Numbered from the stretch's first letter, positions 9,557 to 38,368 are shown. The stretch is 60,680 nucleotides of DNA from Coriobacteriia bacterium (GCA_019429145.1 JAHYJI010000004.1:1-60680), one strand, 5' to 3'. Notes: generated by a model from the letters alone, not told the origin. Numbers and translations: made by a program.

Positions 9557-10996
9557 CTACGCGAAGGTCAGCACCCTCAGGATCTGCTGCAGACCGAAGA
9601 GTAGAGGGGCGCAGCCGATAGCAAGGACGAGCAGCGCGGTGACGACGACAGCCACCTCCGAGACGCGGTCGGGGCGCGCCTCCGCCGCCGCGTGATCGCG
9701 CGGTGGCGCTGACTCGAAGTACAGGTTCTTCAGGACCGCCCCGTAGTACCCGAAGGAGATCACTGACGCGATGACACCGACCAACGCCAGCCACCAGTAT
9801 CCTCCGGACACGGCAACACCGAAGACAAGGAACTTGCCCCAGAACCCTGCGGTCAACGGCATCCCGATAAGCGAGAACATCGCCACCGCAACGGCTGCTC
9901 CGAGCCACGGGCGCTCTCTTCCCAGGCCGGCCAGCCCCGCGATGGTTCCGTCCCACCCGGGCCGTGCGGCCGCAAATGAGCCGGCGGCAAGGAATGCGCC
10001 TGCTGCCGCAAGCGCATAAGCGGTCATAAGGAGCGCGACCGACGTCATTGACACAGCACCAAGCGCGACGCCCACCAGTGCATAGCCGATCTGGGCAACT
10101 CCGGAGTATGCGAGCATCCGCGTGTAGGAACGCTGTAGCAGGCCCCCCGTTGCGCCGAACGCCATCGAGAGGACGGCAAGGATTGCGAAGACCCACAGCG
10201 TGTAAGCGGCATCCAGGCCGGCGAAGACCGAGCGGGAGAACAGGATGATCATCGCCACGACGACGGCGAGCTTGGGAACGCCCGCCAGGAGCGCGGCGAA
10301 GTGAGGGGGCGCTGACTCGAAAGCGTCGAGCGCCCACGAGTGGAACGGGAAGGCACCGATCTTGTACGCGAGCGCGACGCCGATCAGAACAAACGCTGTA
10401 GTCACCGGAGGTCCGGACTCGGCGCCCATTACACCGCGGATCCACACGTAGGACGTGGAACCCCCGTACAAACCGAACAGGATGGCAAGACCGAGCACAA
10501 ACAGGCCCGTGGCGATCGCGCCCTGAACGAAGTACTTCACTGCAGCCTCGGTAGCGGCCGCAGTGCGCGCCGACCACACCAGGGCATACGCGCAGAGTGC
10601 CATCGCCTCCAGCGCGATGAGGAGCACGAGGACATCGGCGGCTACCGCAGCCGAAGCCGCAGCAGCAACAGAGACCGCCGCCAGCGCGGCGAGGCCCCCA
10701 CCGTGTTCCGCTTCGGTGAGCGGGCGCCACGAACCGAGAAGCACGAGCGCTGCGATGGTGCAGATGATTCCGACTGTGGCCGAGAAGCCCGTACCCGAGA
10801 GGACAACGTCACCGGTCAGCTCTGGCGCGCGAGCGCTGCTCGCAAACGCGAGGGCCGCTCCTCCGATGAGGCCGAGAACCGCAAGGGTGATCGCTAGCCC
10901 CCGCCGCTCGAACGCATCCGCGGCCACTGCCGCAGCAGCCCCGATCACGCACGCGATGTGGGGCGCGAATGCGACCAGCATGCTGACCTCGGTCAC
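9557..10996 (-). CDS. nuoN: Complex I subunit N
   Basis: EAAVKYFVQG, YKIGAFPFHSW, RMLAYSGVAQIGY, PLTAGFWGKF. Confidence 0.93.
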   Translation of the reverse strand: MTEVSMLVAFAPHIACVIGAAAAVAADAFERRGLAITLAVLGLIGGAALAFASSARAPELTGDVVLSGTGFSATVGIICTIAALVLLGSWRPLTEAEHGGGLAALAAVSVAAAASAAVAADVLVLLIALEAMALCAYALVWSARTAAATEAAVKYFVQGAIATGLFVLGLAILFGLYGGSTSYVWIRGVMGAESGPPVTTAFVLIGVALAYKIGAFPFHSWALDAFESAPPHFAALLAGVPKLAVVVAMIILFSRSVFAGLDAAYTLWVFAILAVLSMAFGATGGLLQRSYTRMLAYSGVAQIGYALVGVALGAVSMTSVALLMTAYALAAAGAFLAAGSFAAARPGWDGTIAGLAGLGRERPWLGAAVAVAMFSLIGMPLTAGFWGKFLVFGVAVSGGYWWLALVGVIASVISFGYYGAVLKNLYFESAPPRDHAAAEARPDRVSEVAVVVTALLVLAIGCAPLLFGLQQILRVLTFA

Positions 10997-10997
10997 G

Positions 10998-12446
10998 TCA
11001 GGCCCCCGTTCCGATGACCAACGCGAGTGAAGCGAAAACGTCACCGGTCATCGCGAGCACGATCCTCGGCCACACGCCGAGAGCTACGATGGCGGCAGCA
11101 AGCACCACGATCGGGATGAGATCAGCGATCGACAGATCCGGGGTGCCAACCCACTCGCCTGCCACCTCACCGTGCACGACCTCACGCACGGCTCGCAGGT
11201 TGTAGGCAGCAGCAAGCACTACTCCCGGCAGCGCAAGGGCGACCGGCCACGACCAGGCACCGAAGCCCTCAACCACCGCAAGGAACTCCCCCGGGAAACC
11301 CGACAGGCCCGGCAGACCGAGACTTGCCAGAGCCCCGAAGGTCAGTGCGGTCCCCCACCGGGGCACCAGAGAGCCGAGCCCCCCGAAACGCGCGATCTCG
11401 CGCGTATGAGTCCGGTCGTACAACTGCCCGACGAGGAGGAAGAGCAGGGGTGCGATAACCCCGTGACTGACCATGACGAGCATGGCTGCCGAGAAGCCGC
11501 GCTGCCCTCCCGCCGAGAGCGCAAGCATGACGAACCCCATGTGGGCCACGCTCGAATACGCGACGAGCCGCTTGAGGTCCGACTGTACCAGCGCGACCAT
11601 CGCACCGTACACGATCCCGATACCACCGAGCACCGCGAAGATCCAGGCGACATCGGCAAAGGCTCCGGGTGCGATCGGTATGGCGAGACGAAGCAGCCCG
11701 TAGCCACCCATCTTCAGCAGTACCCCCGCGAGCAGAATGGAGCCCGCCGTCGGCGCCTCGACGTGAGCATCGGGCAGCCAGGTGTGGAGCGGGAATGCAG
11801 GCAACTTGACGAGCATGCCCGCCGCGAGCAGCCAGAAGACCAGCATCGGGTCGGCAAGTGCGACCCGGCCGGCGAGAAGCGATTCGATGTTCGTCGTCCC
11901 GATCGTGAACACCGATACCAGTATGCCCACGAGCATCAATGCGCTGCCTGCGAAGGTGTACACGAAGAACTTCATCGCGGCGTGGCGTCGGTCCTCGTGG
12001 CCCCACACACCGATGAGGAAGTACATCGGTATCAGGACCGCCTCCCAGAAGACGTAGAGGAGCACGACATCTGCGGCAAGGAAGACACCGGCCACCGCAG
12101 CCTGCAGCGCGAGGAGCAGGGCGTGGTGTACGGCAGCCCTCTCCTTGACCTTCCACGATGCCAACACCGCAACGGGACCGAGCAGGGCGGTCAGTGCGAG
12201 CAACGGCGCGGACAGGCCATCGATTCGCAGGTCCCAGAAGGGCACCGAGTCCGCCGCCAGAGAGAGACCGGAAACGGCCGCACCGACGAATATCCCCTCG
12301 GCGGCGAGCGAGAGGAGGGCGGCCACGAATCCGAGAGATGTGATGAGGGCGGCAACCCGTGCGTACGACTGGTCGAGCCTACCGACCAGCAAGCACGTCA
12401 CGACGCCGAGGAGGGGGATGAGGATGAGCAGCTCTAGTGCGATCAT
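10998..12446 (-). CDS. nuoM: Complex I subunit M
   Basis: FWEAVLIPMY, KLPAFPLHTWLPDAHVEAPT, LLKMGGYG, KRLVAYSSVAHMG, GFPGEF. Confidence 0.95.
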   Translation of the reverse strand: MIALELLILIPLLGVVTCLLVGRLDQSYARVAALITSLGFVAALLSLAAEGIFVGAAVSGLSLAADSVPFWDLRIDGLSAPLLALTALLGPVAVLASWKVKERAAVHHALLLALQAAVAGVFLAADVVLLYVFWEAVLIPMYFLIGVWGHEDRRHAAMKFFVYTFAGSALMLVGILVSVFTIGTTNIESLLAGRVALADPMLVFWLLAAGMLVKLPAFPLHTWLPDAHVEAPTAGSILLAGVLLKMGGYGLLRLAIPIAPGAFADVAWIFAVLGGIGIVYGAMVALVQSDLKRLVAYSSVAHMGFVMLALSAGGQRGFSAAMLVMVSHGVIAPLLFLLVGQLYDRTHTREIARFGGLGSLVPRWGTALTFGALASLGLPGLSGFPGEFLAVVEGFGAWSWPVALALPGVVLAAAYNLRAVREVVHGEVAGEWVGTPDLSIADLIPIVVLAAAIVALGVWPRIVLAMTGDVFASLALVIGTGA

Positions 12447-14272
12447 CACAACCCCCGCCCGATGTAGGAGACCACAGCAAGCAGCGCGACGGCCCCTGCA
12501 CCCAGCATCGTCGCGTACCACTGCGCATCACCCGACTGCAACGAGCTGAACGCGCGACCCACTCTGCGGGCAAACGGAGCGGTGCCCTCGGCTATGCCAT
12601 CGACGGCCTGCCGGTCGACGAATCTGTAGAGGAACTGCGACGCGCTCGCGACCGGTGCGAGCAGCACGCGCTCGACGAGCCTGTCGGCCCCCCACCCCTG
12701 CCTCATCAGGTCGGCGAGTGCCGCCAGACGCGGCTGCTTGAGACCGGGGTGGCCCGCACCGGCAACCTTCCAGCCTGCAAGCAGACCGAGAACCGCCAAG
12801 AGTGTCGATGCCGCCGCGACGCGAAGATCGAGCGATCCGTGATGGGCACCGATCGTCTCGGCGAGCCAGGCGCCCGCGAAGCCGACCGCAGCCGCGAGCG
12901 TCGCCAGCGCTATGAGCGGCAGCCGCATACTCCAACCGCCCTCATGAGGGTGCCCGTCTCCGCGGTAGGCGTCGAAGAACGCGAGGCGGGTCGTGCGTGC
13001 GACGTAGAACGCGGTCATCAGACTCGCACCGAAGAGCAGGATCGCCCAGACCGGCTCGGCGAGAGCGACATCGTGGAGGATCTCGTCCTTGCTGAAGAAA
13101 CCGGCCAGTGGAGGCAGTCCCGCAAGGGCTCCGGCCCCTATCAGCCAGGTGACACCCGTGACCGGCATCTTCCGGAACAGGCCACCCATCTCCTCGAGCT
13201 CCTGGGTGCCCGAGCCATGGATAACGCTACCGGACCCCAAGAAGAGCAGCGCCTTGAACGCGGCGTGCGTGACGAGGTGGAAGACCGCCGCGCCCCACGC
13301 CCCTACGCCGAGAGCAGCGAACATGAAGCCGAGTTGGCTGATCGTGGAGTATGCGAGCACCTTCTTGATGTCCGTCTGCACGAGGGCCGCCGCAGCGGCT
13401 CCGATGGCCGTGAGCCCACCGACCGCAAGTGTCATCGCCAGCGCGTCAGGAGAGAGCGAGAAGAGCGGCCAGGTGCGAGCGATGAGGAAGACGCCGGCCG
13501 CGACCATGGTTGCAGCGTGGATCAGCGCGGAGACCGGGGTCGGACCCTCCATGGCGTCAGGGAGCCAGATCTGCAGCGGGAACTGTGCCGACTTCCCGAT
13601 CGCACCCACCAGCAGGAGCAGACTCGCTCCGGTGACGGTCGCGGGAGCCAACGAAGGGGCCGCAGCGAACAAGCCCGCGTACGAGAGATCGCCGACCTCG
13701 CGCCAGAGCAGTGCGAGCGCGAGCAGGAGCCCGACATCGCCCACCCGGGTGGTGAGGAACGCCTTGACGGCAGCCTTCGCTGCCGCTGGACGGGTGAACC
13801 AGAAGCCGATCAACAGGTACGAACACGCACCGACAAGCTCCCACCCGATGAAGAGCCCGACCAGCCCGTCAGCAACGACGAGCATGCTCATCGCAGCCGT
13901 GAACAGACAGAGAGAGGCGAAGTAGCGCGGCAGGCCGTTCTCCCCGTGCATGTAGCCGACGGAGAAGAGAACGACGAGGGCAGCCACGAGACCCACGACC
14001 ACGAGCATCACGGCAGTCAGCCCGTCGACCGCCCAGCCGACGGTCAGCGAGTCCGCGGCGCCGACGGTGAGCCACTCGACCGAGCCGGACCGGGGTGCGT
14101 CGTGCAACCCTTCTACCAGCGAGAGGACGCCGTACGCGAGGACCCACAGCGGGGCCAGAATCGCCACGGCGGGGGTGAAGCGTCCGAGTACGCGTCCGAA
14201 CAGGGCGACGACCACCGCGAGCAGCATCGGAAGCAGGACGACCAACCAGCCGAGGTCGAGGAAGGCAGCCAT
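12446..14272 (-). CDS. nuoL: Complex I subunit L
   Basis: WELVGACSYLLIGFW, GKSAQFPLQIWLPDAMEGPTPVSALIHAATMV, DIKKVLAYSTISQLG; C-terminal lateral helix. Confidence 0.96.
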   Translation of the reverse strand: MAAFLDLGWLVVLLPMLLAVVVALFGRVLGRFTPAVAILAPLWVLAYGVLSLVEGLHDAPRSGSVEWLTVGAADSLTVGWAVDGLTAVMLVVVGLVAALVVLFSVGYMHGENGLPRYFASLCLFTAAMSMLVVADGLVGLFIGWELVGACSYLLIGFWFTRPAAAKAAVKAFLTTRVGDVGLLLALALLWREVGDLSYAGLFAAAPSLAPATVTGASLLLLVGAIGKSAQFPLQIWLPDAMEGPTPVSALIHAATMVAAGVFLIARTWPLFSLSPDALAMTLAVGGLTAIGAAAAALVQTDIKKVLAYSTISQLGFMFAALGVGAWGAAVFHLVTHAAFKALLFLGSGSVIHGSGTQELEEMGGLFRKMPVTGVTWLIGAGALAGLPPLAGFFSKDEILHDVALAEPVWAILLFGASLMTAFYVARTTRLAFFDAYRGDGHPHEGGWSMRLPLIALATLAAAVGFAGAWLAETIGAHHGSLDLRVAAASTLLAVLGLLAGWKVAGAGHPGLKQPRLAALADLMRQGWGADRLVERVLLAPVASASQFLYRFVDRQAVDGIAEGTAPFARRVGRAFSSLQSGDAQWYATMLGAGAVALLAVVSYIGRGL

Positions 14273-14273
14273 C

Positions 14274-14579
14274 TCAGCCCTTCACCTCCGCCAACTCGTC
14301 GACACGGGTGGTCTTGAAACGGCGGGCAACCGAGATGACCAAGGCAAGACCGATGGCCGCCTCGGCAGCGGCCAGGACGATCACCATCACACCGGTCGCC
14401 TCCACCGCTCCCTCATGAGTTCCCATCGGCGTGCCCGCAGCCGCCAGCCCGACAAGCAACAGCGTCGCGGCACCGAGCATCACCTCGATGCTCGCGAGTA
14501 TCGCCACCAGGTCCCTGCGGGTAAGCACACCGTAGAGCCCTAGCGAGAACAGTCCGACCGTGATGACCAGCAGGCTCAT
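14274..14579 (-). CDS. nuoK: Complex I subunit K
   Basis: SIEVML and LAAAEAAIGLAL conserved Glu motifs. Confidence 0.93.
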   Translation of the reverse strand: MSLLVITVGLFSLGLYGVLTRRDLVAILASIEVMLGAATLLLVGLAAAGTPMGTHEGAVEATGVMVIVLAAAEAAIGLALVISVARRFKTTRVDELAEVKG

Positions 14580-15070
14580 CGCTCATCGCCTCCCAGGATC
14601 ACGACTACAGCCACGAGAACCGCGAGCAACAGCACGCCGCCCATCTCGAAGTGGGTGAGCATCGGGCCAAGGAATGCCTCGTTCAGTTCAGCAGGACCAG
14701 AGGTGATCCCCTGGTCGACCGAGTCGGGAACTGCACCTCTCAGAGCCGTTACAACCAGGAAGAACAGTCCTCCGGCAACGGCTATCGCCGCCACGTCGTG
14801 GCGTGTCTCGATCGTCGGAGAGCCGTCAGGCGACCGGTGAACGAGCATGATCGCGAAGATCATGAGTACGAGCACTCCGCCGATGTAGACGAAGAGCTGC
14901 ACGATGCCGAGGAAGGTGGCTCCCCAGTAGACGAAGAAGCCGGCGACCGCGACCAGGAACGTGCCCAGGCCCATCGCCATGCGTGAAACGTCGCGGGCGA
15001 ACACGGTGACGATGCCGCCGGACACGGCGACGATACCGAGGATGGCGAAGATGACGCTCTCGAGGTTCAC
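14576..15070 (-). CDS. nuoJ: Complex I subunit J
   Basis: VQLFVYIGGVLVLMIFAIML; FEMGGVLLL; start trimmed to GTG 15070. Confidence 0.92.
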   Translation of the reverse strand: MNLESVIFAILGIVAVSGGIVTVFARDVSRMAMGLGTFLVAVAGFFVYWGATFLGIVQLFVYIGGVLVLMIFAIMLVHRSPDGSPTIETRHDVAAIAVAGGLFFLVVTALRGAVPDSVDQGITSGPAELNEAFLGPMLTHFEMGGVLLLAVLVAVVVILGGDER

Positions 15071-17100
15071 TGCGTCACCCCCGGGGAATCCTCGTGCACG
15101 CCATCCCGCCCGGTGGCACGGGTGCCCCCTCCGTCTCGGACCATCTCGTGACGGTCGAAGATGGTGAAGTCCCGGTGGAAGAAGCTCAGCTCGTACTGAC
15201 CGGTGTGCGTCAACGCGTCTGTCGGGCACTGTTCCGCGCACAGACCGCAGAAGCAGCACTTCGACAGGTCGAGGTCGTAGTGCGTCACGCGGCGCTCGCC
15301 CGGATCATCGGTGCGCTCGACCTCGATGGCGTAGTCCGGACAGGTACGGGCGCAGAAGGTGCATCCCACGCAGACCTCTGACTGGCACCTCAGGCATCGG
15401 GCGGCCTCGTTCAGTGCTTCGAGATGGGTGAGGCCAAGCTCGACCTGCCTGAAGTCGGTGGCACGCTCTTCGGGCTTGGCCATCGGCATCACAACGCGGC
15501 GCCGGTTGGCCTCCACACCCTTCACATCGGCGACCTGGTACTTCTCGTAGACCGGAACCGGGCGTGCAACCCGGCCCTCGGCAAGGTCCCGACCTTCCAG
15601 ATAGCGGTGGACGGAGGTCGCGGCCTCGTGACCGGTGGCGATCGACGCGATCGCGCTGCCCGGACCCGTCACGATCTCGCCGCAGGCGAACACACCGGGG
15701 TGGTGGGTGGTGAAGAGCGTCCCGTCGACCGGCAACAGCCCCCGCTCGGTGAGCGTCAGGTCCGAACCGGCGACCACATCGGCGAGCACGGGACCCTGAC
15801 CGACCGAGAAGACGATGACGTCGAGTTCGACATCGGTCGTCTCCTCACCGAACTGCGGAGAGAAACGGCCTGCGGCATCGAACACCGACAGGCACTCCTT
15901 CATCCGCATGCCGCGGACCTTGCCGTCCTCGTCGACGAGCACTTCCTCCGGCCCGAGGGAGCACATCGCGATGACTCCCTCGTCGAGAGCCTCCTCGATC
16001 TCCCACGGATGACACGGCATCTCGTCGTCGCCCTCGAGGCACGCGAGTCTGACCTCGGCGGCTCCGGTACGAAGCGCGCACCGTGCGACGTCGACGGCGA
16101 CGTTGCCCCCGCCGATCACCAGTAACCGCTTGCCGCTGACGCCCGCATCGCCCTTCCAGTTCGCATCGCGCAGGAACGGCAGCGCACCCATGACTCCCTC
16201 TGCCGTGTGACCGGGTACCGGGATGATGCGGCTTTCCTGGAGGCCGACGGCTATCAACACGGCGTCGTACTCGCCGATGAGGTAGTCGATGGGGACGTCC
16301 TTGCCGACCTCAACGCCGAGCTTGAGCTCCATGCCCAGGGTGACGAGGTTGTCGATCTCGTCGTGGAGCACCTCGCGGGGAAGGCGGTACGAGGGGACGC
16401 CCGAGTACAGCGCGCCGCCCGGCTTCTTCTCCTTCTCGTAGACCGAGACCGAGTAGCCGAGCTTCATGAGATCGTAGGCCGCGGTCAGTCCGGAGGGCCC
16501 CGAACCGATGATGGCGATGCGCTGCCCGCGGGTGCGCTCGAACGGCGTCAGGCGCTCGCTCGCTACCTTCGCGTACTCCTCGTACGCATGTCTGTGCAGC
16601 GGCCGGATGGCGACCGGCTCGTCGTAGTAGTTGCGCCGGCAGGCCGTCTCGCACGGGTGGTGGCAGATCCGACCGAGCACACCGGGCAAGATGTTGCGCT
16701 CCCTGACGAGCTCGTATGCCTCGGCAGGCTTGCCTTCACCGAGGTAGTATCCCTGGCCCCGGGCGTCAACATTCGCCGGGCAGTTACCCACGCACGGCGG
16801 CAGCCGATCGGCACGATGGAGCTCGTCGATACCCGCGTTGTACTCAGGCGGAGCGTCACGGATGATCGGTATGTCGTCGAGCCCGAGCACCCCCCGCAGC
16901 CGCAGAGCACCACGCCATCTTGGCGAAAGGGTGTACTTCTCGTGCGGGTAGCGCAGCGTCGACACGGGTCCGAGCGCACGTCGTCCGGTTATTCCGAGAC
17001 CCGTGAGAAGCGAGCGCCAGCGCGCGAAGAAGCCCCGGGCCCCGCCGGGAAAGTCATCGGTGACGTTGACGGTGACCGGCACCGCGTGCGGGGTGCGCAC
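15067..17100 (-). CDS. nuoI: NuoI interrupted by an in-frame GltD/NfnB-like FAD-dependent NAD(P)H oxidoreductase domain (about 670-680 aa)
   Basis: NuoI N-terminus (TLRYPHEK...RWRGAL), then PPCxxxCP, GRICxHPCExxC, GSGPSG, GGGNVAVD and EAARCLRC, then NuoI CxxCxxCxxxCP twice and YEL tail. Start uncertain (GTG 17100 or 17082). Confidence 0.9.
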   Translation of the reverse strand: MRTPHAVPVTVNVTDDFPGGARGFFARWRSLLTGLGITGRRALGPVSTLRYPHEKYTLSPRWRGALRLRGVLGLDDIPIIRDAPPEYNAGIDELHRADRLPPCVGNCPANVDARGQGYYLGEGKPAEAYELVRERNILPGVLGRICHHPCETACRRNYYDEPVAIRPLHRHAYEEYAKVASERLTPFERTRGQRIAIIGSGPSGLTAAYDLMKLGYSVSVYEKEKKPGGALYSGVPSYRLPREVLHDEIDNLVTLGMELKLGVEVGKDVPIDYLIGEYDAVLIAVGLQESRIIPVPGHTAEGVMGALPFLRDANWKGDAGVSGKRLLVIGGGNVAVDVARCALRTGAAEVRLACLEGDDEMPCHPWEIEEALDEGVIAMCSLGPEEVLVDEDGKVRGMRMKECLSVFDAAGRFSPQFGEETTDVELDVIVFSVGQGPVLADVVAGSDLTLTERGLLPVDGTLFTTHHPGVFACGEIVTGPGSAIASIATGHEAATSVHRYLEGRDLAEGRVARPVPVYEKYQVADVKGVEANRRRVVMPMAKPEERATDFRQVELGLTHLEALNEAARCLRCQSEVCVGCTFCARTCPDYAIEVERTDDPGERRVTHYDLDLSKCCFCGLCAEQCPTDALTHTGQYELSFFHRDFTIFDRHEMVRDGGGTRATGRDGVHEDSPGVTQ

Positions 17101-17147
17101 GGGTGCGCCGACCTGATCGTGGCGCGGAACGGCACCTTTGCCATGCG

Positions 17148-18098
17148 TTACAGCCACGGGATCACCACCCCGACGATCACGAGTTGTAGCAGCGCCATCG
17201 GCGTCAGGACCTTCCATGCGGTGCCCATCAACTGGTCGGGCCTCATGCGCGGGAAAGTCCACTTCACCCATATCATCGCGACGGCGAGCAGTGTCGCAAC
17301 CGCGATGAGCATGATGACGCCGAGAGCCCCGGGCAGGTGGAGGTACCCTCCGAACCAGAACACCGCTCCAAAGAGTGCGGCCGCCACCATGCCGCCGTAC
17401 TCGGCCATCATGAAGATCGCCCAGCGGATGCCCGAGTAATCGGCAAAGTATCCGGCTACAAGCTCGGATTCGGCCTCGGGCAGGTCGAACGGCCCCCGGT
17501 TGACCTCGGCGATCGACGATATGAAGTACACGATGAACGCGATGAACGTCAGCGGGATCCACCACCAGCGCCACTCATCCATGATGTCGAGCGGACGCAT
17601 CGACCCCGCGAGCAGGACGAAGGGCAGGATGGAGAGGGTCCGGGGAAGCTCGTAGGAGATCATCTGCGCAGCGGCGCGCAGGCCGCCGATGGTCGCATAG
17701 GTGTTTCGGGACGACCAGCCAGCAAGCAGGACGCCGATCACCGAGATTGCCGGTACCGCCATGAAGAAGAGTATTCCGACGCTGGTGTCCAGCGGTGCGA
17801 ACCCCGAGGCATACGGGATGATGACGAACGACATCGCGATAGGCGCGAAGACGATCAGCGGCGCGATGCGGAAGATGCGCACGTCAGCCGCTGCAGGCGT
17901 GATGTCCTCCTTGAGCACGAGCTTGAGCGTGTCGGCCAGTGTCTGCAACAGACCGAAGGGGCCGAGCTCTTGCGGTCCGATACGCATCTGGATCCGACCG
18001 GCTACCTTGCGCTCGCCCCATACGCCGATCAGAGCGGCGATCGCGATGACGAGGCCCGCTGCCAGTCCGTAGAGTGCTCCCCACGCCAGGCCGCTCAC
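17148..18098 (-). CDS. nuoH: Complex I subunit H
   Basis: ERKVAGRIQMRIGP, AAQMISYE, NRGPFDLPEAESELVAG, PRMRPDQ. Confidence 0.96.
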   Translation of the reverse strand: MSGLAWGALYGLAAGLVIAIAALIGVWGERKVAGRIQMRIGPQELGPFGLLQTLADTLKLVLKEDITPAAADVRIFRIAPLIVFAPIAMSFVIIPYASGFAPLDTSVGILFFMAVPAISVIGVLLAGWSSRNTYATIGGLRAAAQMISYELPRTLSILPFVLLAGSMRPLDIMDEWRWWWIPLTFIAFIVYFISSIAEVNRGPFDLPEAESELVAGYFADYSGIRWAIFMMAEYGGMVAAALFGAVFWFGGYLHLPGALGVIMLIAVATLLAVAMIWVKWTFPRMRPDQLMGTAWKVLTPMALLQLVIVGVVIPWL

Positions 18099-19240
18099 CG
18101 GTCCACCTCCCCGAACACCGGGTCGAGGCTTCCCAGGATGACGACGAGGTCAGACAGCATGTGGCCTTCCGCGAGAAGCGGCAGCAACGCAAGGTTGCAG
18201 AAGGCCGGCGAGCGCACCTTCATACGGTACGGACGCACCGAGCCGTCAGACACGAGGTAGACGCCGAGCGCCCCTCGAGCGGACTCGATGTGGTCGTACG
18301 CATCGCCGGGACGCGGGGCGAGAAGTCTCGGCAGTCCGGGGGTACGGATCGGGCCCGGCTGCATCTGCGAGATGGCCTGCTCGATGATCCGGCACGACTC
18401 GTAGCACTCGAAGAGCCGCACCCTCGCTCTGTCGTAGCAGTCACCGTTGCTGCCGGTAGGAACGTCGAAGTCGAACCGCGGGTAGACCGAGTAGGGATCG
18501 TGCTTCCGCAGGTCCCAGTTCACGCCGGAGCCCCGGGCCACCGGACCCGATGCGCCCCAGGCGACGGCATCTTCCGGCGAGAGCACGCCGACGTGCTTCA
18601 TCCGGTCCCTGGTTATGACGTTGCCAAAGAACAGGCGGTCCATCAGTTCGAGTCCGTCGCGGTGGTCTCGACAGAACTGCAGCACCCGCTCTGTCCACCC
18701 TTCCGGTATCTCGAAGCTCACGCCTCCCGGGCGTACGTAGTTGTACGTAAGCCGGGCACCGCACAGCTCCTCGAATGCCTCGATGACCTTCTCCCGCTGG
18801 TCGAACGCGTAGATGAACATCGTCGCCGCCCCGGTGTCGGCCGCAGCCGAGCCGAGGGACATCATGTGGCTGGCGATGCGCTGCATCTCGCAGACGATGA
18901 CGCGCAGGTACTCGGCGCGCTCGGGCACCTGAATGCCTGCGAGCCGCTCGACCGTGCGACAGTACGCCCAGTTGGCGTACATCGACCCGACGTAATCCAG
19001 ACGATCCGTGAGGGGGACGACTTGGAGGTAGGTACGGTTCTCGGCCATCTTCTCGATGCCGCGATGCAGATACCCGATGACGGGCTCTGCCTTGGTGACG
19101 ACCTCACCGTCGAGGTGGACGATGACACGGCACACGCCATGAGTAGACGGATGGGATGGGCCGACGTTGACGACCAGTTCGTCCACACCCGGCTCTATCC
19201 GGTCCGTGAAACAGGCATCGCTCCCGATCTCTCCGGTCAT
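18095..19240 (-). CDS. nuoD: Complex I subunit D
   Basis: GPSHPSTHGV, GYLHRG-EK, DRLDY, ESARGALG, LDPVFGEVDR; no NiFe CxxC pairs. Confidence 0.96.
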   Translation of the reverse strand: MTGEIGSDACFTDRIEPGVDELVVNVGPSHPSTHGVCRVIVHLDGEVVTKAEPVIGYLHRGIEKMAENRTYLQVVPLTDRLDYVGSMYANWAYCRTVERLAGIQVPERAEYLRVIVCEMQRIASHMMSLGSAAADTGAATMFIYAFDQREKVIEAFEELCGARLTYNYVRPGGVSFEIPEGWTERVLQFCRDHRDGLELMDRLFFGNVITRDRMKHVGVLSPEDAVAWGASGPVARGSGVNWDLRKHDPYSVYPRFDFDVPTGSNGDCYDRARVRLFECYESCRIIEQAISQMQPGPIRTPGLPRLLAPRPGDAYDHIESARGALGVYLVSDGSVRPYRMKVRSPAFCNLALLPLLAEGHMLSDLVVILGSLDPVFGEVDR

Positions 19241-19254
19241 ACTCCCACCCCCTC

Positions 19255-19716
19255 TCAGATGTAGTCAGGCCTGCGGATAACGGTCTCATCCTCGTAGTCC
19301 TTGCGCAGGGGATAGCCCTCCCAATCATCGGGAAGAAGGATCCTGCGCAGGTCAGGATGTCCATCGAAGACGATCCCGAACATGTCGAACGTCTCGCGTT
19401 CCTGCCATAGAGCGGCCGGCCAGAGACCGGCCAGCGAGTGGACCCGGGGACTGTCCCGGTCGACATTGCACTTGATGAAGACCGCCGCCGACATCGAGCG
19501 GGCGTACAGGCGGTAGACAAGCTCGAAGTGCGTCGGCCGATCGACCGCGGTGACGACACTGAGGCGGTCGAAACCCAGATCCCTGAGGTTGCCGGCGGCC
19601 TCCAGCAGGCGATCCGGGTCGACGGAGATCACGCCGTCCCCGAACTCTATCGAGAAGAGGGGGCACAGATCGGGATAGGTGGCGCACAGGTGCTCGCGCA
19701 GCTCGGTTATGTTCAC
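19255..19716 (-). CDS. nuoC: Complex I subunit C
   Basis: [36 protein letters not shown]. Confidence 0.96.
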   Translation of the reverse strand: [153 protein letters not shown]

Positions 19717-20315
19717 CGCGCACCACTCTCCCCGCCCGCACCGGGATCACCGGGACGAACGCCGAAGGAGATGTCTCCTGTGGCCGGCAGCGTGAGGACG
19801 GCCTCACGGCGCCGGTCAGGCGCGATCGACTCGGTTGCGATGCGCTCGCGAAGCCGGAGTACGGCATCCTGGAGCGATTCGGGCCTCGGTGGACAACCGG
19901 CGATGTAGACGTCAACGGGCAGGAACTCGTCGACGCCGCGCACCACCGAGTACGTGTCGTAGTAGAAGATGCCGCCGGAAACAGCGCAGTTGCCCATCGC
20001 GATGACCCACTTGGGGTCGGCCATCTGCTCGTAGAGCTGCTTGACCGCAGGAGCCATCTTCTTGGTGATCGTCCCGGCCACGATCATCACGTCTGTGTGG
20101 CGCGGATCAGGACGCGGAAATGTGCCGTGCCGATCGAAGTCGAACTTGTTGAAGGAGGCCGCGATGAGCTCCATGGCGCAGCACGCCGTGCCCATCGGCA
20201 TGGCCCACAGTGACTTGCCTCGCGCCCAGTCCAGCAGCGAGTCGACCGTCGACAGGATGATGCCGCCGCCTTGTCCGCTGTCGAGAGTCTCGCCGAGGCG
20301 ATCGATCAGCGCCAC
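19713..20315 (-). CDS. nuoB: Complex I subunit B
   Basis: GTACCAME, AMGNCA, DVYIAGCPPRPE (N2 ligands); start trimmed to GTG 20315. Confidence 0.96.
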   Translation of the reverse strand: MALIDRLGETLDSGQGGGIILSTVDSLLDWARGKSLWAMPMGTACCAMELIAASFNKFDFDRHGTFPRPDPRHTDVMIVAGTITKKMAPAVKQLYEQMADPKWVIAMGNCAVSGGIFYYDTYSVVRGVDEFLPVDVYIAGCPPRPESLQDAVLRLRERIATESIAPDRRREAVLTLPATGDISFGVRPGDPGAGGESGAR

Positions 20316-20671
20316 TGCAGGACCCCCTTGCGCCACGCATAGAGCAGGCCCAGGGACAGGAGGCCCACGAAGATGCCTACGGCGATCACACCCCCGGGCG
20401 ACCCGCGCAGACCGGTCGCGACGGCGAAGAGCATCGCGGCCTCTGCATCGAAAATGACGAGCAGTAGGGCGATAGCTGCGAAGCGCAAGCGCACGGGAGC
20501 CCACGGCATTCCGGCCTGAGGCATGCCGCACTCGTACGGCTCGACCTTCTGGGGAGTGGGATTGCGCGGCGAGAGAAGCACGTTGGCCAGGAAAACCACG
20601 AGTATGAAGCCGACTGCGGCAGCCGTGAGCCCGACTATGAACAGTACGCTGTCCGCGAAGGCGCCCTGCAT
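20306..20671 (-). CDS. nuoA: Complex I subunit A
   Basis: KVEPYECG, LLVIFDAEAA, YAWRKGVLQW. Confidence 0.95.
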   Translation of the reverse strand: MQGAFADSVLFIVGLTAAAVGFILVVFLANVLLSPRNPTPQKVEPYECGMPQAGMPWAPVRLRFAAIALLLVIFDAEAAMLFAVATGLRGSPGGVIAVGIFVGLLSLGLLYAWRKGVLQWR

Positions 20672-20724
20672 TCGGTCCCCCCGGTGCTGGTTGCGGTTGC
20701 GCCGATTCTCGCAGAACGAGCGGC

Positions 20725-20746
20725 GTTTGTAAACATTGTTACAAAC
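20725..20746. promoter_or_regulatory. Palindromic operator upstream of the nuo operon (Rex-like)
   Basis: GTTTGTAA-ACATTG-TTACAAAC, perfect 8-bp arms and AT-rich; core TTGT-N10-ACAA. Confidence 0.6.
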
Positions 20747-20780
20747 TACCTGAGCGGTGTCGAAGGCGCAGGTCGAAGTG

Positions 20781-22802
20781 CTACTCGGTAGCTTCCAGCT
20801 CCTCGATACGATCAGCTAACTCGACCCATTCGCGCTCCATGCTAGCCAGGGCCGACCTGAGCTCAGCATACTCCTTCATCGCTCCGGCGAAACCGTCCGC
20901 ATCGTCGTAGAAGGACGGGTCGGCCATCAGAGTCACTAGCTCTTCATGACGTTTCTGACCCGCGGCGATTCGCTCCTCGAGGTCTGCGAGGTGCGCGCGG
21001 TTCTCGCGGGTGGCACGATAGGCACGGTTCCGGGCCTCGGCCTCGGCCCGCTTCTGCTCCTTCGTCTTGCGCGCCGTACCGACAGCATCGGCATCCGGGT
21101 TCTGCGAGGTGCGTCCCGCCGTCGCCGCGTCCCTGCCGACGGTGGCCGAGCCTCCCCCTCCCGCTGCCGCCAGTGAATCGAGCTGCTCCCGTTTGTACAG
21201 GTAGTAGTCGTAGTCTCCGGGGAAGACGGTCGCCCGTCCGTCACGGACCTCGACGATCTTCGTCGCCACCGATCGGATGAGGTGACGATCGTGCGTAATG
21301 AGCACCATCGTCCCTTGGAACTGCGCCAGAGCGGCCTCGAGCACGTCGGAAGACGCGATATCTAGGTGGTTCGTCGGCTCGTCGAGACAGAGCAACGGTG
21401 CGGGCTCGACCAGCATCTTGGCGAGCGCCAGCCGGCATCGCTCTCCTCCCGAGAGCACCGACACGCGCTTGTTGACGTCGTCCCCACTGAACAGGAACGC
21501 GCCGAGGAGACGCCTGACCTCGGCTTGCGTCCAGCCGGGCGCCACACCGTCGAGCTCGTCGAAGACGCTCTTGCGCCCGTCGAGCGCCTCGAGCTGGTGC
21601 TGGGCAAAGTACGCGACATCGACGTGGACTCCGTACCGACGCTCCCCCTCGTCAGGGTCGAGCACGTCGGCGAGCATCTTGAGTAGTGTGGACTTCCCTG
21701 CACCGTTCGGGCCCACAAGGGCGACCCTGTCGCCCCGATACAGCGTCAGGTCGAGTGAATCGTAAACCACATTGTCCCCGTACGCCTTCCGTACGCCGGC
21801 AAGGTGCACGACCTCTTCGCCGGTCCGTGGCGGTTGTGGAAACGCGAAGCGAACGGTCTTGCGCTCCTCGGGAAGCTCTATCAGCTCCGCCTTGATCCTC
21901 TCGATCCGTCTGATGCGGTCCTGTGCCTGGCGGGCCTTGGTACTCTTGTACCTGAAGCGATTAACAAAGGCCTGCATGTGAGCGATCTCCTTGAGTTGCC
22001 GCTCATGCGTGGCGCGCTGTTGATCTCGAACGAGCTCTCTCTGTGCGAGGTAGCGCTCGTAGGTGCCTGTGTACGTCGTCACCTTGCGCTGATCGATCTC
22101 GGCGACGTGGTCGACCAGACCCTCCATGAAGGCCCGGTCGTGGCTCACCAGCACGATCGCACCCTCGTAGCCACGCAGGAACGACTCGAGCCACATCACC
22201 GTCTCGAGGTCGAGGTGGTTCGTGGGCTCGTCGAGAAGCAGCACGTCGGGCCTGGCCAGGAGCAGCTTTCCGAGGGCAAGCCGCATCAGCCACCCTCCGC
22301 TCAACTCCTCGGTGTCCCGCTCCAGGTCGGCCTCTTTGAAACCGAGCCCGGTAAGGACCCCGCGTGCCTCAGCCTCGATGCCGTAACCGCCGGCGTGCTC
22401 GAACCGTTCCCGCAACCGGCCGTACTCTGCGAGCAACCGATCGGCCTCTGACGGGTCCCCGTCCGATCCGGATACCTCGGCGATCTCGTGCTCAAGCAGG
22501 CGCAGCTGATGCTCGAGCGTGGTGACGTCGGCAGCGGTTGTGAGGGCCTCTGCCAGCACACTCCTCCCGCGCATCTCGATGGCCTCTTGCTTCAGGTAAC
22601 CGACCACCGCATCCTTCGCGAGCGCGACCGTCCCCTCGTCGGGAGTCTGTTCACCCGAGATGATCTCGAGCAGTGTCGTCTTGCCTGCTCCGTTCGGACC
22701 GAGAAGCGCAACCCGGTCACGCGCCCCGACGCGCAGCGAGGCGCCCTCGAAGAGCACTCGCTCGCCGAAGGTTTTCGTCACGCTGTCCACGGAGATAATC
22801 AC
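20781..22802 (-). CDS. ABC-F family ribosome-associated ATPase (YheS/Uup-like)
   Basis: Two ABC domains ([23 protein letters not shown]; repeated), no membrane segments, coiled-coil tail. Confidence 0.93.
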
Positions 22803-22808
22803 CGTGAC

Positions 22809-22814
22809 AGTCTA
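22809..22814 (-). promoter_or_regulatory. -10 box for a probable leaderless ABC-F transcript
   Basis: TAGACT 6 nt upstream of the GTG start at 22802. Confidence 0.45.
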
Positions 22815-22832
22815 GCAGGGAGGATCGGGACC

Positions 22833-24182
22833 GTGGCTTCTGACAAGCGCGTCGTCGTGATCGGTTCCGGCGCTGCCGGGACCGCGGCCGCACGGACACT
22901 CGCCGCGGCGGGTTGGAGCGTGACGGTGGTCGAACGCGATCGCGTGGGAGGCACCTGCCTGTGGACCGGTTGCATGCCCAAGAAGGCCCTCTACACCTCC
23001 GCACGTGCCCGACGCAGCGCTGCGCGCGCGGAGATGTTCGGCTTGGAGGGCATCAAGAGCTTCGACTGGCAGACGGTCCTGGCGTGGAAGTGGCACAGCC
23101 AGGAGACGTACGCCGGTGACCAGGAATCCGGCTTGGCAGAGCGTGGCATCACACTTCTCAAGGGCGATGCGCACTTCGTATCGACCGATGCACTTGAAGT
23201 CGATGGCCGGCGTCTGACCTTCGACCATGCGGTCATCGCCACCGGCTCCCGGCCGGAAATGCCGCCGGTCGAGGGGATCGAGTTGGCGGACACCAGTGCC
23301 GACGCCCTGAGCTACCGCGAGCCGCCATCGTCACTGCTGGTAGTCGGGGGCGGGTTCGTCGGCATCGAACTGGCCACTGTCTACGCGTCCTTTGGCACCG
23401 AGGTCACCATCATCACCTCGGGCCCGCGCCCCCTCGGGATGCTCGATGAGGAGGTCGCCTCGGTAGCACTACGCCGTCTCGAACGGATGGGAGTCACGCT
23501 ACGCGCATCGTGCCGCCTCCACGGCCTTGCAGGCACTCAGGGAGCGGCCACCGCGCGATTCGTCGACGGTGAGGGGCTCCCGCACGAGGGCACGTGGAAG
23601 CGCGTTCTTGTCGCCACCGGTCGCGCCCCCGCGCTCGAAGAACTCGACCTGCAGGCTGCCGGCGTCGAGGTCGACGGGCACGGGCGCATCGTGCTCGACA
23701 CGTCTCAGCGGACCACCAACCCGCGCATATGGGCGGCGGGCGATGCTGCCGGTGGGATGATGCAGACACCGATCGCCAACTACCAGGGACGTACCGTCGC
23801 GACGTCCATCCACTCCGGTACGGCGCTCGACATCGATACGTCTGCGATTCCTACCTGCCTGTTCACCACGCCTCAGGTCGCGCAGGTCGGGCTGACCGAG
23901 GCACAGGCACGGGCGGCCGGGATCGAGATCTCGGTAGGGCGTGCAACCTTCGACTTCCTCGGTGCCGCCGTGATCGAGGACGAGCGTGACGGGCTGGTCA
24001 AGCTGATCTTCTCGGCCTCGGACGGACGGCTTGTCGGCGCCCACATCGCCGGCCCCACCGCAAGCGACCTCATCTACGCGATGGCCGTCGCTATGCGATG
24101 CGGGGCGACCCGCGACACGCTCGGGGCCACCGTCGGGATCCATCCGGCTTACTGCGAATCACTCAACTGGGCAGCCGGGTAG
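22833..24182 (+). CDS. Class I pyridine nucleotide-disulfide oxidoreductase (dihydrolipoamide dehydrogenase-like)
   Basis: GSGAAG FAD motif, GGTCLWTGCMPKK redox disulfide, GGGFVGIE, C-terminal HPAYCE; SD GGGAGG before GTG 22833. Confidence 0.88.
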   Translation: MASDKRVVVIGSGAAGTAAARTLAAAGWSVTVVERDRVGGTCLWTGCMPKKALYTSARARRSAARAEMFGLEGIKSFDWQTVLAWKWHSQETYAGDQESGLAERGITLLKGDAHFVSTDALEVDGRRLTFDHAVIATGSRPEMPPVEGIELADTSADALSYREPPSSLLVVGGGFVGIELATVYASFGTEVTIITSGPRPLGMLDEEVASVALRRLERMGVTLRASCRLHGLAGTQGAATARFVDGEGLPHEGTWKRVLVATGRAPALEELDLQAAGVEVDGHGRIVLDTSQRTTNPRIWAAGDAAGGMMQTPIANYQGRTVATSIHSGTALDIDTSAIPTCLFTTPQVAQVGLTEAQARAAGIEISVGRATFDFLGAAVIEDERDGLVKLIFSASDGRLVGAHIAGPTASDLIYAMAVAMRCGATRDTLGATVGIHPAYCESLNWAAG

Positions 24183-24203
24183 CCGGACCACCACCTCTCG
24201 ACA

Positions 24204-24884
24204 TCAAAACGGCAGCCAGGGCAGTTCGATGCCGACCGCCTGCCCCACGAAGCGAGCACCCATGTAGAGGAGCGCCACTCCGAGCAGGCCCATGATCACG
24301 CGATACACGTTGCGAGTGAGCAACCCCTTGCCCTTGTGCACCACCGTGATGACGAATCCGTACCAGGAGAGGTCGGCCAACTGGTGGCCGACGAAGAAGG
24401 CCGCAATCCCGACAGCACCGATCGTGAGCCCGTCAGTGGCGAGCTTGACGCCGATCGTCGCCCACCACAGCGTCCACCACGGGTTCGAGAGCGATACGAC
24501 CGCACCCTGGGTGACCGCTCCCAGATGACTCGCCGACAGCACGCCCGTTTCGGCAACCAGCAGGTCTCGAGCGATCGAGCCGTCCCCTGCTCCCCTGACG
24601 AGCCCCGTTCCCATCCACAACAGCACCGCGCCGCCCGCCACGGCCAGCGCAAGCGTGACGCTCGGCAACCGCAGAAAGCGCTGGAGCCCGAATGCGAACC
24701 CCACCAGCAGTGCCGCTTCGAGAAGCGCATGGCCGACCAGCATCAGCGCTGCCGAGAGGGCACCCCGTTGCATCGTCCGCGAGATCGTGACCGTCAGAAA
24801 AGGCCCCGGCGACATTGCGCCCGACAGCCCGACCACGAAGGCCTGAGCGCCGAGCGCGAGTGCCGCGGCGGCTTCCGGAGACAC
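24204..24884 (-). CDS. LysE/RhtB family translocator
   Basis: SGAMSPGP, LMLVGHALLE, SLSNPWWTLWW; hydrophobic. Confidence 0.85.
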   Translation of the reverse strand: MSPEAAAALALGAQAFVVGLSGAMSPGPFLTVTISRTMQRGALSAALMLVGHALLEAALLVGFAFGLQRFLRLPSVTLALAVAGGAVLLWMGTGLVRGAGDGSIARDLLVAETGVLSASHLGAVTQGAVVSLSNPWWTLWWATIGVKLATDGLTIGAVGIAAFFVGHQLADLSWYGFVITVVHKGKGLLTRNVYRVIMGLLGVALLYMGARFVGQAVGIELPWLPF

Positions 24885-28066: not shown

Positions 28067-28158
28067 ATCCCGTTCCTTGAAGGCGGGCCAGGCACCACGG
28101 AGGCGCCACTCTGAATATCGACCTTGTGCCTGAGGCACTTGAGAGCGGGCGAACGTGA

Positions 28159-36256: not shown

Positions 36257-38368
36257 TTACCTGCCGAGGAACCCGCCACCCAGCGAGACGAAGAGCGGCA
36301 CGAACACCAGGCTCACGACGGTCATCAGCTTGATGAGGATGTTCATCGACGGTCCCGAGGTGTCCTTGAACGGATCGCCCACGGTGTCACCAACGACAGC
36401 GGCCTTGTGGGCGTCAGAACCCTTTCCGCCGTGCTTGCCGCCCTCGATGTACTTCTTGGCGTTGTCCCACGCGCCTCCGGCATTGGCCATGAAGATGGCG
36501 AGCAGGAAGCCGGTCACCAGCGCACCGGCGAGCAGTCCCGTCAGCATGTCGACGGAGACCGCACCGACGATGAGCGGCGCTGCCACGGCAATGACGCCGG
36601 GGACGACCATCTCTTTCAGGGACGCCTTGGTCGAGATGTCGACACAGGCGGCGTAGTCCGGCTTGCCGGTGCCCTCCATGATGCCGGGGATATCGCGGAA
36701 CTGGCGGCGGACTTCCTCGATCATCTTGAAGGCCGCGCGGCCGACAGCGTTCATCGTGAGCGCGCCGAAGAGGAAGGGCAGCATACCGCCGATGAAGAGA
36801 CCGACGATGACGTACGGGTTGTCGAGTCCCATGTTGAGAAGCGCAGCACCCTCTGCCTCGAGGCCGGCGTTGACCTGCGTGCGGAACGCCACGAACAGCG
36901 CGAGTGCGGTAAGACCAGCCGAACCGATGGCGAAGCCCTTCGCGATGGCGGCCGTTGTGTTGCCGACGCTGTCGAGCGAGTCGGTGATCTTTCGGATCTC
37001 GGGGCCCATGTGGGCCATCTCGGCGATACCGCCGGCGTTGTCGGCGACAGGCCCGTAGGCGTCGACGCCGACCGTGATGGCGATCGTCGAAAGCATGCCG
37101 AGCGCAGCCAGGCCGATGCCGTAGATGCCGCCGCCGGGTGCAGCAGCCTCACCAGCGGTGAAGGCGATGATGATGCCAGCGGAGACCACGAAGATCGGTG
37201 CGGCAGTCGACATCATGCCCGTACCGAGACCGGCGATGATGTTGGTAGCGGTTCCGGTCTCGGACGCCTCGGCGATCTTCTGCGTAGGACGGTAGTGGTC
37301 CGAGCAGAAGTACTCAGTGATCTTGCCGATGGAGATACCAGCGGCCAGACCTGCGAGCACTGCGGCGAAGAACCACATACGCGCGGGATCGGAGCCGTCG
37401 CGGGTCGACCAGTGCCAGAAGAGGAAGCCCATGGCGCCGACCTGCAGGATCGCAGCGACGTAGGTACCCATGTTCAGGGCGTTGTGGAGGTTTCCACCCT
37501 CCTTGGCGCGAACAGCGAACAGGCCGACGATCGACATCACGATGCCGATGGCGGCGATGAGCAGCGGAGCGGTGGCGCCGTAGATGAAGTCGATCGAGTC
37601 GAACCCGTCGCCCATGACGCCCCACAGCGAGACGGCGAGAACGACAGGCGCGAGGATCGAGCCGACGAACGACTCGAAGAGGTCGGCGCCCATTCCGGCC
37701 ACGTCACCGACGTTGTCACCGACGTTGTCGGCGATGACCGCGGGATTGCGGGGATCGTCCTCGGGAATGCCAGCCTCGACCTTACCGACAAGGTCGGCAC
37801 CGACATCGGCCGCCTTCGTGTAGATACCGCCGCCGACACGCGCGAAGAGCGCGATCGAGGAGGCGCCCATGGCAAAACCGTTGACCACTTCGGGCTGCGG
37901 GGTCTCGCCGTTGAGGATCAGGAAGATGATCCACAGGCTGATGCCACCCAGACCGAATGAGGCGACCGTCAGCCCCATGGTAAGACCGGAACGGAACGCG
38001 ACGTTGAGCGCCTTGTGCACGCCCTCGGTCGCGGCCTGTGCGGTACGCGTGTTGGCCCGGGTGGCAACGAACATACCGAAGTAGCCCGCCGCCGCGGAGA
38101 GGATCGCGCCGGTGAGGAACGCTACGGCAGTCATCGGCGGCATAGCCGGGACCACGACGATAGCCACCGCGACAACGATGGCGAACACGACAAGGACCCG
38201 GTACTCGCGCATGAGGAACGCGAGTGCCCCCTCCTGGGTCGCTTTGGAGATCTCCTGCATCTTCTCGTTGCCGGGATCCTGCTTGAGGACCCAGGACGCG
38301 AGATAGACGGCGACTGCGATGCCGAGCACCGCGGCAGCCGGTGCCACCCACGCTATCCAATCAGCCAT
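36257..38368 (-). CDS. hppA: Membrane-bound ion-translocating pyrophosphatase, K+-dependent type, probably Na+-pumping
   Basis: [71 protein letters not shown]. Confidence 0.96.

Follow-up and report, generated by a model that had tools for sequence, protein, structure and literature searches.

The operon described here lies on the minus strand of a 60,680-nucleotide stretch of DNA from a Coriobacteriia bacterium (GCA_019429145.1 JAHYJI010000004.1:1-60680; hereafter the window, with positions counted from its first letter). It is a contiguous set of 11 complex I genes, nuoABCDH-I*-JKLMN, in which the nuoI gene encodes a fusion protein: a flavoprotein module of about 500 residues, related to GltD and NfnB, is set in frame within the NuoI subunit. 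Canonical NuoI proteins have 160-180 amino acids and receive their electrons from NuoG, and the electron donor of the 'headless' 11-subunit complex I is a long-standing open question. The inserted module probably serves as a built-in N-module, non-homologous to the usual one, that feeds electrons from NAD(P)H to menaquinone with proton pumping. A sequence-only reading of the window had proposed this electron-input role and had considered the architecture undescribed; full-text literature searches on fusions of NuoI with GltD, NfnB or glutamate synthase, and on complex I of Coriobacteriia and Anaerosomatales, likewise found no paper describing the fusion.

A flavoprotein module within NuoI

The NuoI model TIGR01971 matched the fusion in two separate pieces, its positions 1-41 aligning with window positions 16879-17001 (residues 34-74) and its positions 40-120 with 15145-15384, so that neighbouring positions of the model are 498 in-frame codons apart. 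The parts of the protein, with residues numbered throughout as in the 677-amino-acid form starting at GTG 17100, are as follows.

16885..17043, minus strand: N-terminal part of NuoI (residues 20-72), with an amphipathic helix, YPHEK and PRWRGALRL
15385..16806, minus strand: inserted flavoprotein module (residues 99-572), of the circularly permuted GltD/NfnB type according to NF009410, PDB and Foldseek matches
16573..16800, minus strand: Fer4_20 part of the module (residues 101-176), Pfam profile positions 30-108, 1e-16
15631..16521, minus strand: FAD and NAD(P)H Rossmann domains (residues 194-490), Pfam Pyr_redox_2, 1.3e-23
15385..15498, minus strand: closing segment of the insert (residues 535-572), with RC569LRC572, Fer4_20 profile positions 1-29
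15136..15384, minus strand: ferredoxin core of NuoI (residues 573-655), with CVGCTFCARTCP, C(C)FCGLCAEQCP and the YEL tail, TIGR01971 positions 40-121

When residues 72-573 were removed in silico, the remaining 176 amino acids matched TIGR01971 end to end (positions 1-120 of 121, 111.8 bits). The division of NuoI into an N-terminal and a C-terminal part by an in-frame insert of about 500 amino acids, as first read from the sequence, was thereby confirmed. All the motifs quoted in that reading were present (PPCVGNCP, GRICHHPCETAC, GSGPSG, GVPSYRLP, GGGNVAVD, EAARCLRC, CVGCTFCARTCP, CCFCGLCAEQCP and YEL), and the profile searches it had proposed gave matches to Fer4_20, Pyr_redox_2, TIGR01971 and, at residues 577-629, the Pfam 4Fe-4S dicluster domain. 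NuoI/TYKY chains in the PDB matched residues 572-661, and the ligands of clusters N6a and N6b correspond to C577, C580, C583 and C587 together with C615, C618, C621 and C625 of the NuoI part. The C-terminal fragment scored 76.6 bits with NuoI and 33.7 bits with PRK12771, indicating that the ferredoxin core is NuoI's own and was not imported with the flavoprotein. A PRK12771-type ferredoxin with an added NuoI N-terminus was ruled out by these scores and by the end-to-end NuoI match of the excised protein. With a length of 677-696 amino acids, the fusion departs from the single ferredoxin-fold protein of ~160-200 amino acids by which NuoI is delimited. An AlphaFold2 model built with 64 fusion sequences formed a confident single body (mean predicted local distance difference test score 87.6, predicted template modelling score 0.84), with a helix at residues 21-42.

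The fusion lies between nuoH and nuoJ. The genes of the operon, all on the minus strand of the window, are listed below; nuoE, nuoF and nuoG were found neither between nuoD and nuoH nor elsewhere in the operon.

20306..20671, minus strand: nuoA (121 amino acids), by translation; the orthologous position is an Oxidored_q4 protein in two distant loci (L035 and L036)
19713..20315, minus strand: nuoB, Pfam Oxidored_q6; likely start GTG 20315, the longest open reading frame (ORF) reaching 20531
19255..19716, minus strand: nuoC, Pfam Complex1_30kDa, 6.3e-41
18095..19240, minus strand: nuoD, Pfam Complex1_49kDa, 1.6e-92
17148..18098, minus strand: nuoH, Pfam NADHdh, 1.5e-99
15067..17157, minus strand: nuoI fusion, 696 amino acids in the public gene call
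14576..15070, minus strand: nuoJ, Pfam Oxidored_q3; likely start GTG 15070
14274..14579, minus strand: nuoK, Pfam Oxidored_q2
12446..14272, minus strand: nuoL, Pfam Proton_antipo_N and Proton_antipo_M
10998..12521, minus strand: nuoM, Pfam Proton_antipo_M
9557..11044, minus strand: nuoN, ORF, with paralogy and orthology by tblastn

The ORF of the fusion is open over 15067..17574 on the minus strand. The start at 17100 adopted in the earlier reading gives 677 amino acids; since the segment 'RHDQxGAP' upstream of this GTG is kept in homologues, the gene probably starts at GTG 17157, as in the public call. The public annotation names the product 'FAD-dependent oxidoreductase' or 'NADPH-dependent glutamate synthase beta subunit-like oxidoreductase'. 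At 15067-15070, the likely GTG start of nuoJ (15070) and the TGA that ends the fusion share bases as GTGA, an arrangement that suggests translational coupling of the two genes. A longer nuoJ ORF reaching 15259 is probably an artefact of high GC content.

Permuted cofactor module and its closest relatives

The earlier assignment of the insert as GltD/NfnB-like held with respect to its Fer4_20 and Pyr_redox_2 matches and its motifs; the module is, however, the permuted form found in StnC, NfnA and PRK12771 rather than a plain GltD or NfnB. In GltD-type proteins the whole Fe-S domain precedes the flavin domains. Here the Fer4_20 match at the start of the insert covered profile positions 30-109 only, and positions 1-29 followed the flavin domains. 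Placing residues 535-573 ahead of residues 99-185 extended the match to positions 1-108 and raised it from 50.7 to 78.8 bits. Because the re-joined ends restore the full Fer4_20 match, C103 and C107 can be assigned to one Fe-S domain with C569 and C572, and the first and last cysteines of the insert appear to build one [4Fe-4S] site. In the dihydropyrimidine dehydrogenase structure, the CxxC...C part of this domain ligates the cluster more distant from the flavin; by analogy, this would be the exit cluster. C572 stands four residues ahead of C577, the first cysteine of the NuoI motif CVGCTFCARTCP. The ends of the insert are thus predicted to converge on the exit cluster beside the cluster motif of the host protein, which is the geometry needed by an electron wire, and a domain of 500 residues can be accommodated in a loop because the ends of the permuted insert meet.

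Candidate ligands for two [4Fe-4S] clusters in the Fer4_20 part are C103, C107, C146, C150, C154 and His169. The Rossmann motifs for FAD (G199, G201, P202 and G204) and for NAD(P)H (G330-N333, A335 and D337) were all invariant. The flavin-proximal cluster of StnC has K170 as its non-cysteine ligand, and NfnB has Glu at this position (PMC10482914). The aligned residue was His (His169) in 48 of 48 sequences of the clade to which the window protein belongs and Lys in 16 of 16 sequences of the distant clade of fusions. Glu151 of the 'PCE' motif had been considered for this role and was dropped, as StnC K170 aligns with His169 instead.

The two clades also differed at the end of the second Rossmann strand. 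The window protein has L355-E356 there (C-L-E); (C/S/A)-L-E occurred in it and in 118 of 120 close homologues, the other two having C-V-E, and the Glu was found in all 48 aligned clade members. Y-R-R was present in 20 of 20 distant fusions, as well as in StnC and NfnA. According to the general Rossmann-fold rule, an acidic residue here binds the hydroxyl groups of the ribose and keeps out the 2'-phosphate. Since Leu-Glu replaces the NADPH-type Arg-Arg, NADH is by a slight preference the predicted substrate of the window clade, and NADPH that of the distant clade. The fusion family seems to comprise two types, Leu-Glu/His and Arg-Arg/Lys, whose nucleotide preference may differ.

The closest PDB sequences were 9bov_A (E 8.9e-96) and 8oh5_C (E 7.2e-91), co-linear with the fusion over residues 78-645, followed by 9n5u_A, NfnB (4ylf_B, 5jca_L), GltD and dihydropyrimidine dehydrogenase. 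Foldseek ranked NfnA of Caldicellulosiruptor NfnABC, StnC of Sporomusa StnABC and Thermococcus NfnA at the top (E 1e-47), again with NfnB, GltD and dihydropyrimidine dehydrogenase behind them. The GltD domain of StnC (amino acids 102-565), which is set in a NuoG-like domain, contains two [4Fe-4S] clusters and a non-bifurcating FAD and binds NADPH, whose electrons run along a linear chain of clusters (PMC10482914). With StnC, use of this module as the nucleotide port of an Fe-S scaffold related to complex I has a characterised precedent. The fusion resembles StnC (8oh5_C) and NfnA (9bov_A, 9n5u_A) in carrying the permuted GltD module, with FAD and two [4Fe-4S] sites, inside a complex-I-related Fe-S protein. 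In StnC, however, the host protein is NuoG/FdhF-like and soluble and works with the HydBC-like StnAB, whereas here it is NuoI of a membrane nuo operon, and the genome encodes no HydB/NuoF homologue. The fusion also lacks the [2Fe-2S] and FdhF/molybdopterin-like domains of StnC and NfnA (by Pfam) and is shorter (677 versus ~1170 amino acids), and it has Leu-Glu and His169 where StnC has Arg-Arg and the Lys170 ligand.

Members of PRK12771/NF009410 combine the permuted GltD module with a 2x[4Fe-4S] ferredoxin, often followed by an MvhD-like tail, and align with fusion residues 97-631. Non-fused members such as P0129 were the nearest neighbours of the window flavin module and share its CLE motif; unlike them, the fusion has a NuoI-type ferredoxin core, a NuoI N-terminus and a nuo operon around it. 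Compared with canonical NuoI/Nqo9/NDUFS8 (TYKY), the fusion retains the N-terminal helix, YPxEK...RxRG, both CxxCxxCxxxCP motifs, the YEL tail and the position between nuoH and nuoJ, and differs by the ~500-residue flavoprotein carried in the loop ahead of the first cluster motif. A further GltD-like paralogue of the genome (contig C114:13828-15138) has 35% identity to fusion residues 92-507 and no NuoI parts.

The FAD might bifurcate or confurcate electrons, so that a 'bifurcating complex I' would couple NAD(P)H, ferredoxin and menaquinone to proton pumping while the plain-NuoI paralogue present in most of these genomes carried out the simple reaction. The homologous FAD bifurcates in NfnAB (PMC10482914), and the Arg aligned with NfnB R201 and StnC R239 (R239) is invariant among the fusions. 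Nevertheless, this possibility is very unlikely: a single Fe-S chain leaves the flavin, neither the protein nor the operons contain an NfnA-like or second acceptor domain, and the FAD of the closest relatives, those of the StnC type, is the non-bifurcating one (PMC10482914).

Conservation, distribution and origin of the fusion

Among fusions at 36-100% identity, the YP and RxRG motifs and all eight cysteines of the NuoI part were invariant, as were C103, C107, C146, C150, C154, C569 and C572 and the motifs GxGPxG, PxYRLP and GGGNxAxD of the insert. The ratio of non-synonymous to synonymous substitution rates (dN/dS) of the insert was 0.046-0.07 for the closest orthologues, similar to that of the NuoI flanks, and the insert is under purifying selection.

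An artefact of assembly or annotation, or a decaying relic without a role in the complex, could also give an unusual gene of this kind, and it is true that the source metagenome-assembled genome (MAG) consists of 143 contigs and that the protein scores under the curated cut-offs of its families. This explanation is hardly credible, as more than 120 full-length homologues from independent assemblies had 69-94% identity to the fusion, dN/dS was ~0.05, the ligands were all invariant, and about 89 of the 99 good genomes of the order Anaerosomatales encode the fusion. Furthermore, a Logan contig assembled independently from one public run of a volcano metagenome extends over 14500-17615 and differs by 23 substitutions, without any indel. 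A misassembly, named in the sequence-only reading as a refuting finding, or a frameshift was ruled out by this contig, which keeps the same frame, and by hundreds of homologues.

The search for the same split architecture in other genomes, also proposed in that reading, identified 24 loci in species-representative genomes with fusions at 63-95% identity. Their labels were Coriobacteriia, Anaerosomatales or unclassified Actinomycetota, with the exception of one 'Aeromicrobium' bin and one 'Coriobacteriaceae' MAG, and every sufficiently long locus showed the order nuoB-C-D-H, fusion, nuoJ-K-L-M-N. Of 301 sampled genomes of the class, most of those from Anaerosomatales encoded a full-length fusion, spanning more than 20 families; in the other orders of this sample no fusion was found, only GltD paralogues (E 1e-50 to 1e-100). 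An exhaustive profile-free search of 1.8 billion representatives returned about 11 clusters at 50% identity that have the whole architecture, at identities as low as 37%, one of them coming from Candidatus Subteraquimicrobiales of the class Ca. Aquicultoria. Two distant loci (L035 and L036, 37-40% identity) had the order nuoA-B-C-D-H-fusion-J-K-L-M-N. The fused operon of L036 (11196-17962), from a metagenome contig, contains four antiporter-like genes (513, 498, 684 and >488 amino acids) and an ORF of 107 amino acids, which exceeds the usual L/M/N set.

In a quick tree of the flavin modules, the fusions were located in at least two well-supported clades with non-fused proteins between them. 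The window clade was sister to P0129, the non-fused PRK12771-type protein, and the distant fusion clade was found near StnC-like proteins. The tree required a minimum of four label changes, of which the well-supported branches force three. A single origin of all fusions is not supported by this tree, and the separated clades suggest that the NuoI loop was colonised more than once or that the module was later replaced.

Proposed electron input to the 11-subunit complex I

The fusion would be the NuoI of a membrane-bound, quinone-reducing 11-subunit complex I; the loop that joins the 'RWRGALRL' strand of this NuoI to its first cluster motif would carry a self-contained NAD(P)H dehydrogenase module. 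Electrons would pass from NAD(P)H to FAD, then through the proximal and exit [4Fe-4S] clusters to N6a/N6b of NuoI and N2 of NuoB, and finally to menaquinone at the NuoD/NuoH site, with protons pumped by NuoL, NuoM and NuoN. The insert would in this way stand in for NuoE, NuoF and NuoG within a single polypeptide. In its proposed role it resembles the NuoEFG N-module, in which NADH is oxidised at a flavin and Fe-S clusters wire the electrons to N6a. It differs in being non-homologous, with FAD in a two-Rossmann GltD fold versus FMN (flavin mononucleotide) in NuoF, two clusters versus six to seven, and one polypeptide versus three.

The genome content is consistent with this proposal. The host is an anaerobic actinobacterium, and no NuoF was found in its 98.5%-complete genome: the sole match to Complex1_51K (PF01512) was RnfC, and the NuoF/HydB marker PF10589 had no match. 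A supply of NuoEFG from elsewhere in the genome was ruled out on these grounds, the single 51K match lying in the rnf cluster. That cluster (C104:33813-38935, L037) comprises RnfC followed by FMN_bind, Rnf-Nqr and Fe-S/RnfB-like ORFs; a gene for heptaprenyl diphosphate synthase component I is directly downstream of it. Across the order, PF10589 was absent from 72 of the 99 good genomes. In several genomes that do contain it, a non-fused GltD-like gene was located no more than 5-7 kb away on the same contig, and such loci may encode soluble complexes of the Stn/Nfn or Hyd type.

On the acceptor side, NuoD retains both quinone-site residues, His (HPSTHG) and Tyr (DRLDY), and has no NiFe hydrogenase cysteines, and NuoB keeps the N2 ligands CC...C...CP (MGTACCAME, MGNCAVSGG and IAGCPPRPE). 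A hydrogenase or an Mbx-like complex was rejected on the basis of the NuoD residues. MenA was present (C126:23804-24634; 218 bits versus a cut-off of 102), and MqnA and MqnD of the futalosine pathway were not found in the genome. Both the quinone-site residues and MenA point to menaquinone as the likely acceptor. Contig C126 also carries four consecutive NuoL/M-like antiporter genes, Mrp-like or other, over positions 15575-24634, a few kilobases from MenA, and more NuoL/M-like pairs were located on C57 and C122.

These residues bear on another assignment, in which the enzyme would be an Mbx-like ferredoxin:NAD(P)+ oxidoreductase that passes electrons from ferredoxin through the NuoI clusters and the flavoprotein to NAD(P)+, with a membrane arm that pumps ions and no involvement of quinone. 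In mbx-like operons of Thermotoga and proteobacteria, NuoI was described as 'substituted by a flavoprotein related to gltD' and this was read as a site of NAD(P)+ reduction (Degli Esposti 2015, PMC4758237). The operon in the window shares with them a GltD-related flavoprotein at the NuoI position of a complex-I-like cluster. Furthermore, the paper on the first cultured Anaerosomatales reported nuoNMLKJIHDCBA lacking NuoEFG and suggested ferredoxin as the donor; it is silent on the size and domain content of NuoI, and its supplement contains nothing on NuoI (PMC9686372). Compared by description, however, the mbx-like operons are of the Mrp/Mbx type and were interpreted as ferredoxin:NAD(P)+ enzymes that lack a quinone site, whereas NuoA, NuoH, NuoJ, NuoK and three antiporter subunits mark the operon here as a true nuo operon. 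In view of the conserved quinone site, the N2 ligands and MenA, and given that Rnf already performs the ferredoxin:NAD+ reaction, an Mbx-like function is quite improbable.

Another nuo operon of 11 genes is present in the genome, interrupted at a contig end (C51:10200-12536 and C98:1-6399; L038 and L039), with the order nuoA2-B2-C2-D2 | D2'-H2-I2-J2-K2-L2-M2-N2. Identity between its subunits and those encoded in the window was 35-50%, and its NuoI2 is a plain protein of 178 amino acids. Plain NuoI was present in 83 of the 99 good genomes of the order and fused NuoI in about 89; about 73 had both forms, 16 the fused form only and 10 the plain form only, and a fused-only genome without the NuoF/HydB marker was found in 12 cases. 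The long-term coexistence of the fused and plain operons argues that they are non-redundant, and the electron donor would be the obvious candidate for the difference between the two complexes.

Complex I is reversible, and the same enzyme could work mainly backwards, with quinol (from H2, formate or another donor) and the proton-motive force reducing NAD(P)+ at the module. Relatives in the order are anaerobic and some grow on H2 (PMC9686372), StnC and NfnB are reversible with NADP(H) (PMC10482914), and the plain nuo operon of most genomes could do the forward job. Sixteen good genomes have the fused operon only, though, and Rnf already links ferredoxin to NAD+; no sequence feature indicates direction. 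A predominantly reverse operation is therefore considered unlikely, and oxidation of NAD(P)H at the module with reduction of menaquinone is the direction preferred here.

Several points weigh against the reading of the fusion as a built-in N-module. At 92.6 bits, the whole protein scored below the curated cut-off of TIGR01971 (113.05), as did its insert-free version; the plain NuoI2 of the same genome likewise fell short of it (103 bits), indicating that this cut-off is strict for the lineage. NF009410/PRK12771, the best NCBIfam model, gave 452.2 bits versus a cut-off of 516 (residues 97-631, model positions 44-561 of 566). It was followed by the GltD-like models and then by the NuoI models; the GltD/GltA models were all below their cut-offs (TIGR01316, 275 versus 472; TIGR01318, 214 versus 483; TIGR01317, 184 versus 448). 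The sequence was found in one public run only, a DNA run, and in no transcript run. The NADH prediction is based on the general Rossmann rule and is the weakest step of the proposal; a characterised enzyme with the L-E motif was not found. With Rnf and a second, plain-NuoI nuo operon in the genome, NADH oxidation by the fused complex is not the sole imaginable route. Finally, a simple two-electron input is not guaranteed, because the NfnB-type FAD is the bifurcating flavin in NfnAB (PMC10482914).

Other genes of the window include a membrane H+-pyrophosphatase (36257-38368, minus strand; Pfam H_PPase, 898 bits) near a pyruvate phosphate dikinase (39971-42682, minus strand), and their proximity may be a sign that this anaerobe runs an energy economy based on pyrophosphate. 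A dihydrolipoamide-dehydrogenase-like flavoprotein with Pyr_redox_2 and Pyr_redox_dim domains is encoded at 22488-24182 on the plus strand; its longest ORF starts about 120 residues ahead of the first domain, and this excess may represent a genuine N-terminal extension or an ORF read too long because of high GC content. A PAS-GGDEF-EAL protein of cyclic di-GMP signalling (862 amino acids) is encoded at 25550-28138 on the minus strand.

For the Anaerosomatales, the fusion provides a concrete alternative to ferredoxin, the donor suggested previously (PMC9686372). If the proposed function is true, the fused complex would be the smallest known architecture for a proton pump from NADH (or NADPH) to quinone and an independent evolutionary solution to the job of NuoEFG. 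It would also represent a natural case of a StnC-type nucleotide port plugged into different complex-I-related Fe-S scaffolds. The fused and plain operons occurring together in most Anaerosomatales form a built-in physiological comparison, and the two cultured members of the order, if they carry the fusion, may allow the hypothesis to be tested at the bench.

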